Below are positions 4,579 through 33,156 of a DNA stretch of 64,000 bases, piece after piece (the first letter of the stretch is position 1; every line of letters begins with the position of its first letter). Under the pieces are notes generated by a model. It saw nothing but the letters and a program-made list of their open reading frames with translations. It ran no database searches and had not been told where the DNA came from. Both the position numbers and the translations under genes were made by a program. The stretch covers positions 7,316,001 through 7,380,000 of the forward strand of contig OX597825.1 in the NCBI GenBank assembly GCA_951406725.2, in the 5' to 3' direction. The stretch comes from Octopus vulgaris. Taxonomy: Eukaryota.

Positions 4579-5167
4579 CACGTGCGTGCATGTGTGTGTA
4601 TGTTACACTTCGTGTTTTTAGTTTTGCATGCATGTGTGTGTGTGTATATATATATATGTACACAGGCACACAAAACACACACACATACACACATATATAT
4701 CTTCACATACACATACATTCATGTACATCCACGCGTATATATGCATACAAATGTACACACACACACACACACAGATAGACACACACGCGCGCACACAGAC
4801 CAATCAGGATGTAGAGCTAAAAGCTTCAGAAGTCTTACATGATATTGCAGGAATCACCGAAGAAGTCAAAGGTTATTCTTGAAATAAGCTCACCCCGAGA
4901 GACACTCCCTAAATTGTAAAAGTGATACAGTTAATGATTGGTTTGAACATCTGCACGTCTCAGAGGGATGCAGTTTATAGGGGAAGGATTAAACGAAACG
5001 GCTGGTGTTGCATCCAGAAGGTGAAACACACTTGGTAGGACGAGGGGGCGATGGGAGCGATGGGGTTATGCGAAGATGAGTTGAAGACCGTAGGGAATGT
5101 TATAGAAGTGGTATAAAGATAGGGAGGAGAACAGGGCATGTGTGTCATTATAGGAAGAAATATATAA

Positions 5168-5548
5168 GCAATGGCCCAGTGGTTAGGGCAGCAGACACGC
5201 GGTCATAGGATCGCAGTTTCGATTCCCAGACCGGGCGTTGTGAGTATTTATTGAGCGAAAACACCTGAAGCTCCACGAGATTCCGGCAGGGGATGGTGGC
5301 GAACCCTGCTTTACTTTTTCACCACAACTTTCTCTCACTCTTTCTTCCTGTTTCTGTTGTACCTATATTTTCAAAGGACCAGCCTTGTCACATTCTGTGT
5401 CACGCTTAAATCTCCCCGAGAACTACGTTAAGGGTACACGTGTCTGTGGAGTGTTCAGCCGCCACTTGCACGTTAATTTCACGAGCAGGCTATTCCGTTG
5501 ATCGGATCGACTGGAACCCTCGTCGTCGTAACCGACGGAGTGCCACGG
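5168..5548 (+). mobile_element. SINE family C, near full length, with 11-bp target-site duplication
   Basis: A-box tggcccagtgg (5172-5182) and B-box-like gtttcgattcc (5216-5226). TSD tataagcaatg at 5163-5173 and 5549-5559. Matches the copy at 33787-34142 (-). Confidence 0.9.
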
Positions 5549-6456
5549 TATAAGCAATGTGTAACGATTAACAAAGACAATGATTTATTTTGTCTATTTC
5601 TATTGTTAGCAAATTAACCAATAACCATGACTCTATCAAAATACGATTTCCTTTTGCAGCCTGTGTTCAGCTATCAGTCTGTATATTTATATATGAATGG
5701 ATCTATCTATCCATCTCTCTTTTCTCTCTCTGCTCCCTTTATCACTCTTTACACACACACACAGAAGTACGTATACTTGTGTGTGGCATGTGAGTGTGTG
5801 TATGTGACATGTGTGCGAGATACATGTGGCTGTGTGTGCGTTTATTCCATTTAACGTAAATATTCTGAGCTCGTGTTCATGATTATGAGAAATAACATTA
5901 AGTGATGACAATGATGGTAAAAGGGAAATGGCACTCTGCTATTATGTTATTGAAGCTGATATCAACGATGTTTGTAAGAAGACGGTTGAAATATATAAGT
6001 GATCGGCCGGTGAGTTCATTGTAGATTATCACTAGATTAGATGTATTTACATCCAATAGTGGGAGTCAGATAATCGGATCACCATCAGCTTTCGTTGATT
6101 ACGGATGAAGTTAATATCTTAATATGGCAAACGTCGTACAATAAGAGGTTGCTTCTTGGCAACCCAATAACATGATACGGTTTTAATCTTTCGTTTCAAG
6201 CAATTTCGGTTTATTTACTTCTCTACTTCTATTAGGATTGGCATCAAGATTGAAAGTCTCTTTCTTCAAGGGTCTCTTAACATTTAGAATATTTATGATA
6301 TTTAATAATGAACGTGGCGAACTGTGCTCGACAAGAATTTTTGAAATAATACATTTCTAAATTTCCCAGAGAGATTTATGCAGTAACAGCACGAGAAAGT
6401 GATAGTATGTTGTCAACTTAATGTGACAGTCTCATGAAAGGGAAGAATGCTACTGC

Positions 6457-6679
6457 TATTTAGCCCTAGGAAACACTGTTTCCTGTATTTCACTTGAAAT
6501 ATATATGTTTTCAAAGGCGGATAGGCATCGACAGCTAGCAAGCCATGCTACTCCAGACTGATGATGAGCAAGGACTCTGAAACTAGTCTCTGGATGCTGG
6601 CTTTGCAGGGTGGAGATGCTTACCTCCACTTTGAAGACATCAGGACACAGGAAATATGTCCAGTCCAACAGGCTAAATA
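6457..6679 (+). mobile_element. rod-like fold-back element carrying a hammerhead ribozyme (retrozyme-like)
   Basis: Nested complementary segments 6457-6465/6671-6679, 6479-6486/6647-6654, 6510-6529/6615-6635, 6538-6545/6598-6606 and 6552-6557/6589-6594 enclose an HHR core. Confidence 0.55.
6552..6594 (+). ncRNA. minimal type I hammerhead ribozyme motif
   Basis: tccaga-CTGATGA-t gag caagga ctc t-GAAA-CTAG-TC|tctgga: intact core, 6-bp stem I, palindromic stem III (ACTAGT) and a GUC cleavage triplet. Confidence 0.75.
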
Positions 6680-6694
6680 ACCTCTAAATACAGA

Positions 6695-6761
6695 GACGTA
6701 CACACACCAATACCGGTTGTCAAGCGGTGATGGTGGACAAACGCAAGCACAAAGACCCACT

Positions 6762-6795
<34 letters not shown>

Positions 6796-7064
6796 CATAC
6801 ACACACACATATATATATATATATATTTCTTTACTACCCACAAGAGGCTAAACACAGAGAGGACAAACAAGGACAGACAAACGGATTAAGTCGATTACAT
6901 CGACCCCAGTGCGCAACTAGTACTTAATTTATCAACCCAAACAATGCTTTAGCTAGCCCGAGGTTTTAGTTGGACACATTTGCCCAAGGTGTCTCCCAGT
7001 GGATCTGAACCCAGGAATATGTGGTTGGAGATCAAGCTTCTTACCACACAGCCACGCCTGCGCC
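6695..7064 (-). mobile_element. SINE family A (diverged) with nested family B tail fragment at 6826-6937
   Basis: Head accacacagccacgcctgcgccta at ~7043-7066, 3' part caccaataccggttgtcaagcgg at ~6704, and B tail ctttactacccacaagaggctaaacacag inside the internal microsatellite. Confidence 0.75.
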
Positions 7065-7760
7065 TATAGATATAAAAAGGAATAAAGCTGGAGTTGTCTA
7101 TACGTATGCACAAAACAAATGCGAGCTCTATTATTCATATACTAGAAGGTAAATACAAATATATTACAAATTTTTACACAGTTGTATTAACATACATAAA
7201 TGCGCGCATGTACACACACACATACACATACAAAATATTCATTTTCTCTAAAAATTAGTCTAAATCTCAAGAAGTTAACACACGCAGTGTAACACTCATT
7301 CTACGCCTGATAATGCCACGGAGCCGAGGCAGCAGAAGCCAACCTGGCTTTACGTAATTTTCATTAACGAATTTTAACTATACTCCAAGGCAAACACTTT
7401 AATCGGTTTATGTCTATTTTATGCTTTGATCTTGAAAGCGGAAATGTTACATGTCTGACATCAAAACAGAAGTTATTTACTTCATTATATATATATATAC
7501 ATGTGTGTGTGTGTGTGCGTGCGTGTGTGTGTGTGTGTGTGTTTCCGGTAATTAATTTGCATTTTAGAATGAATTGGGAATAGCTTTTTTGCTTGTTTAT
7601 TAATTAATATTTCTAGCCTTAGTCTACGCTCTGTCAGACATACCTCAACAGACGGTATGTCCCCTGTGGAAATCACACATACCTACCTGTGCCCTAGTTT
7701 CTCCGCTGCTAGTTTCTCAGGTACACTCTTATATATATATATATACCAATCATATACATA

Positions 7761-8282
7761 CATTTCCGCAACTCGGGCAATTCCAGCGGTTTCGGTACAA
7801 CCGCAGCTTTCTACAGTAGGTTGGTAGAGGCTGGAAATGATGATGCCCCGGGAAGGACTCTGGGTCTCGATGATAATCAGTTAGACAGCTTGTTCCGAAG
7901 AACATTCGGGCCGAAGACACAGAATAACTTCCATAAGTCTTTGGCCTGGCAGTGTCACCGATGAGCCCTACCCGTTAGGGATAAGCTCACCAGACACGGC
8001 CACCCTGGGCTGTCGGCCTGTCCAAGATGCGGACGAGACGTGGAAACCGACCCGCACGCTATTGTTCAGGGTCCGGGTGTATCAAAAGTGTGGACTTATG
8101 CAGAACACCTGTTGTCAGATGGAAGAAGAGTACAACTACCGTCTGAGTCAATTCTAAAAGTTAACCCACCGGATTTCCTCATGGAAGAAGGTAAAAATTG
8201 TTTTCTCGTAGTTGAAGCAATTGCCAGAGAGGTGATATGGAAGTCGAGAATGAAAGGTATAGTGACAGACAACTTTGTCTAA
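7761..8282 (+). mobile_element. Tx1/L1-clade LINE ORF2 C-terminal fragment (zinc-knuckle region), pseudogenic
   Basis: Frame reads NFHKSLAWQCHR*ALPVRDKLTRHG..CPRCGRDVETDPHAIVQ..VW with one in-frame stop. Homologous to 16725-17122. Confidence 0.8.
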
Positions 8283-8287
8283 CGGGC

Positions 8288-8543
8288 ATATGGCGTAGTG
8301 GTTAAGAGCGCGGGCTACTAACCCCAAGATTCCGAGTTCGATTCCAGGCAGTGACCTAAATAATAATATTAATAATAATAATAATAATAATAATAACACC
8401 GAAAACACCTTAGGGATGAGAAACCAGGTTCGAAATTTCCCCAAGACACCTGATGGAGGCTGGAGGGTATATCAGCCGAAATGTTGTGTTAACAAGATGA
8501 GGATAATGTACATAATTCCTCATCTCTTAAATATAGAACTGTA
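8288..8543 (+). mobile_element. SINE family E: tRNA head + (AAT)n linker + hammerhead-like 3' module
   Basis: A-box tggcgtagtgg (8291-8301), B-box gagttcgattcc (8334-8345), and gacac-CTGATGG-aggctg..cagcc-GAAA-tgtt-gtgtt (8445-8490). A second copy lies at 20741. Confidence 0.8.
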
Positions 8544-24197: not shown

Positions 24198-24581
24198 GGA
24201 TTTATGACATCGTTCGTGAGTTTGTACTGGTTTTAAGGTTTTAGAGATAGGGATAGGGTTTTAGGGTTAGGGTTAAGGTTTTAGGGTTGGGGTTTTAGGG
24301 TCGTCATAAATAAAAGTGACAAACGAAATATACACCGGTGGAAGTTCTTGTTGACAAACAACAACAGTAATTTTATTCAGCTGAATACACGTCATTGATT
24401 GGTTGAAATTACCGAAATACGAGAAATTTAACGTGAAATAACTTCATAAATATAAGTTTTTCTCAAAAATGCTAAGACTAAAAGATGTTTTATATAACAC
24501 ATTCTACCAGTGTCCAAAGTTTGAAAGTGTTTAGTTACAAAAAATTATGTTTTAAATCTGTCGGTCAAAAGGTAAAGATCC
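24198..24581. mobile_element. non-autonomous DNA transposon with 8-bp TSD carrying telomere-like repeats
   Basis: TSD caatataa at 24190-24197 and 24582-24589, termini ggattt.. / ..gatcc, and internal degenerate (TTAGGG/TTTTAGGG)n at ~24230-24300. Confidence 0.65.
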
Positions 24582-33108: not shown

Positions 33109-33156
33109 AGCGTTCTCCTGATGAGTAGCTTCAGTTAGAAACAGTCAGACAACGCT
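33109..33156 (+). ncRNA. minimal type I hammerhead ribozyme motif
   Basis: agcgtt ctc-CTGATGA-g tagc ttca gtta-GAAA-CAG-TC|agac aacgct: intact core, distal stem I agcgtt/aacgct, GUC triplet. Confidence 0.6.

Follow-up and report, generated by a model that had tools for sequence, protein, structure and literature searches.

The stretch at 6457-6679 of the window (the whole 64,000-nt stretch of Octopus vulgaris contig OX597825.1 that was analysed) raises the question of whether a short, self-complementary DNA carrying a ribozyme-like motif represents a mobile RNA and, if it does, how copies of that RNA enter the genome. An earlier note had described the interval as a rod made of five nested complementary blocks and capped by a hammerhead. 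All five blocks are present (block 1, 6457-6465/6671-6679; block 2, 6479-6486/6647-6654; block 3, 6510-6529/6615-6635; block 4, 6538-6545/6598-6606; block 5, 6552-6557/6589-6594), and the fold of 6457-6679 reached -85.4 kcal/mol, with z -6.6 against shuffled sequences and none of 200 shuffles equally stable. The predicted fold is branched, however, and not the single long imperfect rod that had been proposed. Block 2 had a mean pairing probability of 0.02, compared with 0.95 for block 1, 0.88 for block 3, 0.99 for block 4, and 0.78 for block 5, and a competing hairpin suggested at 6610-6629 had a probability of 0.0 in the same fold.

The motif at the tip is as had been described, a minimal type I hammerhead on the plus strand (6552-6594) with an intact core, a palindromic stem III and a predicted cut after C6588. 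Stem I is formed by 6552-57/6589-94, the CUGAUGA core lies at 6558-64, GAAA at 6579-82, and the stem III palindrome, ACUAGU, at 6582-87; stem II consists of three pairs (6566-68/6575-77, p 0.89) with a U.U at its base (6565/6578). The G10.1-C11.1 pair before GAAA is absent from all three families of this repeat described below, family A having U.U, family B A.A, and family D C.A at this place. The U.U variant at the base of helix II also occurs in the axolotl ribozyme HHR_Amex2, which is active and cleaves better as a dimer (PMC7229834). Stem III palindromes differ in sequence among families A, B, and D, yet persist in all three. An Rfam match, which the earlier note had put forward as a check, was not obtained, as no hammerhead family appeared at E<=5 in 5000-8500 and the output held only microsatellite-driven noise. 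In the MFE fold of the monomer the opening bases of the core are wrongly paired (p 0.84), with an open-core fold just 1.7 kcal/mol above the MFE. For a double-hammerhead fold the cost over the MFE is 3.4 kcal/mol in the consensus dimer and 9-12 in the two tandem family-A loci, L205 and L209. In Xenopus, 8/9 predicted retrozyme dimers stayed uncleaved in vitro (10.64898/2026.07.22.740005), which tells against the retrozyme reading favoured below. The unit rod (6500-6645) gave z -5.1 on the plus and -2.9 on the minus strand, and the circular consensus fold gave -8.5 on the plus strand, which bears the ribozyme, and -5.7 on the minus strand, on which no hammerhead was found. A second CUGAUGA...GAAAC match in the window (33111-33155, matching at 33118; chance expectation 0.28 per window) was considered and rejected, as it belongs to none of the three families.

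The window locus (about 6343-6681) is one copy, now decayed, of a dispersed repeat family. We number the family's 348-nt unit from the first base after the ribozyme cut. Family sequence begins near 6343 and not at the previously drawn boundary of 6457. The inverted arm (6343-6486, minus strand) holds unit positions 80-223 with its 3' end leftward, belongs to the long (tailed) 3'-end class, and is 92% identical to the family consensus across 144 nt; read by eye, it may extend to about 6336 past a small deletion. The direct arm (6484-6672, plus strand) runs from unit 244 to 348 and then from 1 to 84, through the ribozyme cut site, at 96% identity to the consensus (181/189). The arms meet head-to-head at 6484-6486, a 3-nt microhomology that belongs to both. 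After an internal deletion, a remnant of unit positions about 103-111, read against the consensus, follows at 6673-6681 on the plus strand and supplies the outer 3' arm of the rod as first drawn; no further unit pieces were found within 6673-8200, the remaining 3' end being lost. The broken right end adjoins unrelated interspersed repeats, which we take to be SINEs, and a microsatellite (6682-7070), and 6679-6760 has independent matches of 74-80% at other loci, with a CA repeat nearby. No target duplication was found around the window copy. Neither the left junction nor the right end is an assembly error, since contigs from an independent DNA run span both.

This anatomy explains the blocks. 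Blocks 1 and 2 are complementary because 6343-6486 inverts unit 80-223, of which the plus arm holds a direct copy. These two outer blocks arose as a perfect inversion of DNA during insertion and are not the G-U-tolerant RNA arms that had been supposed, and the three inner blocks (3-5) are the unit's own rod, which occupies 6505-6641 on the plus strand in the MFE fold with the ribozyme at its tip. In place of a 220-nt monomer bearing its ribozyme in the middle stands a circularly permuted 348-nt unit; the ribozyme had seemed central because the window copy starts at unit position 244. The rod also contains a LINE target site (6533-6544, plus strand; unit 293-304) that is unoccupied here and filled at other copies. 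With a single ribozyme and its right end lost, the window copy is probably inactive. Elsewhere in the window, 62573-64000 is a purine-rich tandem repeat with periods of 31 and 151 and strong strand skew, and at 24233-24301, within the chromosome arm, lies a short run of degenerate TTAGGG-like sequence.

As an insertion, the window copy is dead and unremarkable, and the interest lies in the signature of its family and in the LINE that targets it. The genome-wide count that had been called for gave 118 exact matches to the 31-nt ribozyme sequence (control 0), and family A yielded 1,988 first-look candidates, 40 of which were scored. The unit has a period of 348 nt (72/76 positions) and is circularly permuted. 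Two sister families are collinear with A, family B with a 353-nt unit (2,788 candidates) and family D with a 357-nt unit (2,491 candidates). Both keep the ribozyme core, and stem I is altered compensatorily at 6/6 pairs across the three families. Both-sided changes were present in 13/19 consensus pairs in an alignment of 25 real copies, including all 6 of stem I, and behind this covariation stand three families or lineages, not 25 independent events. Over the whole unit, the 110 pairs of family A include 16 compensated and 29 broken in B, and 16 compensated and 42 broken in D. In unbiased sets, changes hit the core at 14/396 positions (3.5%) compared with 228/3,453 elsewhere (6.6%, p 0.016), a modest within-family conservation indicating that genomic copies mostly decay. 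An apparently stronger conservation in family A (2/341) was discounted as possibly ascertained, because sets chosen without regard to the ribozyme showed a weaker effect. Copy counts, the permuted unit, and covariation bear out the earlier view of a dispersed, non-coding, RNA-mobilised element of the retrozyme/PLE (Penelope-like) kind.

Other related repeats were seen alongside these families. A younger family at L208:1192-2088 has tandem units that are 98.9% identical and a UUGAUAA core, which reflects the U3-A8 covariation noted in PMC4209133; judged by its sequence, it is the best candidate for current activity. Older hammerhead families with longer stem III regions (L216, L220, L226, L227, L230, L232, L236, L238, L240) belong to the same superfamily as units A, B, and D. 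Copies of family D (among the B and D loci L064-L093 and L179-L203) often end beside (TA)n runs, and at L004:1100-1235 and 1830-1950 a short repeat with hammerhead-like motifs encloses a family-A copy, with a 14-bp duplication.

The form of the insertions was examined at 60 fetched loci, reduced to 52 non-redundant ones by removing 8 duplicates or second halves. Thirty of the 52 were head-to-head, none was tail-to-tail, and 22 lacked inversion. The outer 3' ends fell largely into two classes, 73 of 82 lying at unit 157-176 (41) or 216-249 (32), with clusters near unit 172 and 225, about 55 nt apart. Among the 30 inverted loci, 22 had one end of each class, one had two alike, and 7 were broken. 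Family B was inverted at 18/29 loci, 14 of the 18 with one end per class, a count for which the query forced one long end. Flanking duplications of at least 7 bp were present at 24/52 loci, 16 of these being 11-14 bp, and at 4/150 shuffled flank pairs used as the control. Arm junctions were variable, most of them lying at overlaps of 1-5 nt or in the inverted repeat that the rod itself provides. Published marks of PLE insertion are head-to-head inverted repeats, an optional tail of 30-40 bp and duplications of 8-10 bp (PMC3846280, PMC8557442). In vitro, the tail was traced to reverse transcription that begins at two internal places, both strands of the DNA being cut (PMC11167929). The tail here is about 55 nt, exceeding the published 30-40 nt. 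The insertions bear a PLE signature of inversion, one-arm tail, and 5' truncation.

Copies longer than one unit were found at 14 of the 52 loci, none of which reached two units. A targeted search for paired ribozymes gave 6 matches (control 1), comprising two in family A, two in diverged relatives, one in the younger, 98.9%-identical family, and one that was unrelated; the family-A loci, L205 (856 nt) and L209 (737 nt), span 2.1-2.5 units, and no long tandem arrays were found, the largest in this search being 2.5 units. The earlier description of the element as a monomer stands for the window copy and does not extend to the family, as two-ribozyme tandems occur elsewhere in it. Since copies exceed one unit and tandems exist, the template is one that runs on through the cut site without a break, either as a circle or as a multimer.

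We consider it likely that the element is a non-LTR retrozyme and that an autonomous PLE supplies the reverse transcriptase-endonuclease which inserts its RNA. The rare tandem two-ribozyme loci would be transcribed, and a double hammerhead cut would release unit-length RNA, which is probably ligated to a circle, a linear multimer being somewhat less probable. The PLE protein would make one nick in each DNA strand, the two being about 12 bp from each other, and reverse transcription would start at internal positions of the RNA, near unit 172 for one strand and near unit 225 for the other. Each cDNA would pass back through the ribozyme site and halt at a variable point, the two cDNAs would join 5'-to-5' at microhomologies, and the inserted copies would decay afterwards. 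Judged by sequence, the features of a retrozyme and of a PLE insertion are found here, with the exception of abundant tandems and a shared pseudo-LTR; catalysis and circles are predicted.

Candidate enzymes are encoded in the same genome. Of 6,136 GIY-YIG candidates 150 were scored, and 781-aa frames hold 16/148 GIY-YIG matches, intact PLE proteins being abundant. In a young PLE family at L151 and L152, many 781-aa frames with RT and GIY-YIG are intact, a long open frame lies upstream, and the 3' region has tandem repeats of about 100 nt. An autonomous PLE family carries a 3' hammerhead (L164:868-902, L160:921-957) built like the present one, with a U.U at the base of stem II and a palindromic stem III. 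The copies could instead be 5'-truncated pseudo-LTR fragments of an unsampled or extinct autonomous PLE, with no separate non-coding replicon. Every insertion signature observed is indeed a PLE signature, the scored share of GIY-YIG candidates leaves room for an unsampled relative, and at L196:864-1330 a mid-ORF PLE fragment is directly joined to a family-D unit, a joint that is possibly a template switch. Against this, what lies upstream of the ribozyme is more unit (up to 2.5 units) and never the end of an ORF; a search of 200 repeat loci with 29 PLE proteins found an adjacent fragment at L196 only; and the unit is held at 348-357 nt in three families. We regard derivation from such fragments as improbable, and favour a retrozyme mobilised by a PLE protein. 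A point against the favoured reading is that no sequence shared with units A or B was found in 58 PLE stretches, apart from an independent insertion of family D.

Readings that dispense with PLE machinery fare less well still. A MITE or foldback DNA transposon, with the inverted arms as terminal inverted repeats, would account for the many inverted copies and for the target duplications, and is nonetheless scarcely credible: there are no fixed, symmetric terminal inverted repeats, arm lengths and junctions differing in almost every copy, while the two ends correspond to different positions of a permuted unit, 22/52 loci have no inversion, and the covariation of the ribozyme is strand-specific. 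A viroid-like RNA-to-RNA replicon, or a host regulatory ribozyme selected at the window locus, might be suggested by the strong self-pairing of the circular unit and by the intact core of the window copy. A viroid was rejected for want of a ribozyme on the minus strand, and the window copy is truncated, 4-8% diverged, and one among very many, which makes either form of this reading very unlikely. RNA reads were drawn from about 6% of each of three cDNA runs dated 2026, libraries in which small circles may be lost and the species of which may differ. The unique flank at 5900-6331 had 0 reads in the three runs, possibly from another species, a further point against selection at this locus. Reads on one unit numbered 421, 380, and 300 of about 12 million, came from both strands and were 85-88% partial; no pile-up at the cut site was found in these runs, which may derive from a related species. 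These read data tell against the favoured reading of a PLE-mobilised retrozyme. Joints with permuted ends carried no information, the chosen point lying within almost every genomic copy. On L005:1708-1805, reads of a related family in the three runs (X21-X23) exceeded those of family A, and had 0 exact matches in the genome.

The proposed PLE-mobilised retrozyme can be set beside known systems. Metazoan non-LTR retrozymes (mussel, 350-390 bp; axolotl Rtz_331/353; coral; PMC7229834) have non-coding units of 150-450 bp with a type I hammerhead, as here, and share with the octopus families a GC content below 50%, duplications of more than 4 bp, and a self-paired predicted circle. Unlike those elements, for which long arrays are common, the copies here are dispersed, 5'-truncated, and mostly inverted, with tandems of at most 2.5 units. 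Mobilisation by PLEs was proposed for them from shared ribozymes, tandem layout, and co-occurrence (PMC7229834). The same origin has been proposed for non-autonomous PLE derivatives (10.64898/2026.07.22.740005; MRC1, PMC8557442), and those of Xenopus occur as monomeric dispersed copies, as here (10.64898/2026.07.22.740005), but the derivatives have sequence in common with known pseudo-LTRs (10.64898/2026.07.22.740005, PMC8557442), and no such partner was found here. Penelope/Poseidon and Neptune PLEs show head-to-head inversion, a one-arm tail, 5' truncation, and partial tandems, all as here (PMC11167929, PMC3846280, PMC4209133), and the minimal PLE hammerhead, CUGANGAH-G...GAAA-palindrome-UH, fits the present ribozyme (PMC4209133). 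The octopus unit differs from these PLEs in having no ORF and in carrying U before GAAA where C is published (PMC4209133). The sample of 10.64898/2026.07.22.740005 covered vertebrates, three insects, and one coral, and no cephalopod retrozyme was found in the literature seen, including two supplement files of PMC4209133.

A second element appears to exploit these retrozymes. Of 30 loci found by the ribozyme pattern, 6 were interrupted at unit 292-296 by an element of about 1.8-2 kb with a zinc-knuckle ORF only and duplications of 12-23 bp. This ORF1-only LINE has inserted serially at one site and has at least three 3'-end variants, and an ORF2 remnant with zf-RVT (Tx1/L1-type) occupies the identical retrozyme site; LINE loci were recorded at L061:1787-4273, L120, L210:633-2645, and L211-L260. 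In a converse sample, 30 loci were picked solely by the LINE 3' end from 136 candidates and classed by reading. Sixteen passed straight into a hammerhead unit, the distance being almost constant, in families A, B, and more diverged ones; of the others, 1 did so via a second LINE fragment, 11 had the target word and then another LINE start, and 2 were unclear, so that 28/30 were target-linked. When 20 loci were extended upstream, 6 with a full-length LINE had the upstream half of the retrozyme and a duplication, while none was detected at the other 14 with three consensus units as queries. The 14 loci fit a chimeric RNA recopied by the PLE protein, but the same picture would arise if the target had been deleted or had diverged too far to be detected; no convincing target duplications were found around the truncated LINE-retrozyme chimeras.

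Assignment of the LINE to clade Tx1 is provisional, being made from the ORF1 zinc knuckle and the zf-RVT remnant. HAL1 are ORF1-only elements. As with Tx1 LINEs and HAL1, the octopus LINE uses one site within another mobile element and has long duplications and serial tandems. Targeting of other transposons by Tx1 LINEs has precedents, Tx1L inserting into Tx1D and Tx1-Mar into Mariner-N4 (PMC4494074). Unlike in those cases, the target here is a ribozyme retroelement, hit at the same position in families that are about 65% alike, and recognition across diverged families would perhaps depend on structure, not sequence. No report of a LINE with a retrozyme target was found in the literature covered, Repbase being outside the search. 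A three-tier system is tentatively conceivable, although we hold it to be less than likely as a whole: circular retrozymes would ride the PLE protein, a Tx1/HAL1-type LINE would target them about 55 nt 5' of the cut, and the ribozyme would trim LINE-retrozyme read-through RNA, which the PLE protein would then copy again, beginning at the start sites of the retrozyme.

The published case for PLE mobilisation was built on shared ribozymes, co-occurrence, and pseudo-LTR homology, whereas in the present families the fingerprint of PLEs is borne by the insertions. It points to two start sites on the 348-nt RNA that can be tested, and the intact PLE ORFs of the same genome are candidate enzymes. If the three-tier reading is true, the LINE would spread via a second class of retrotransposon machinery.
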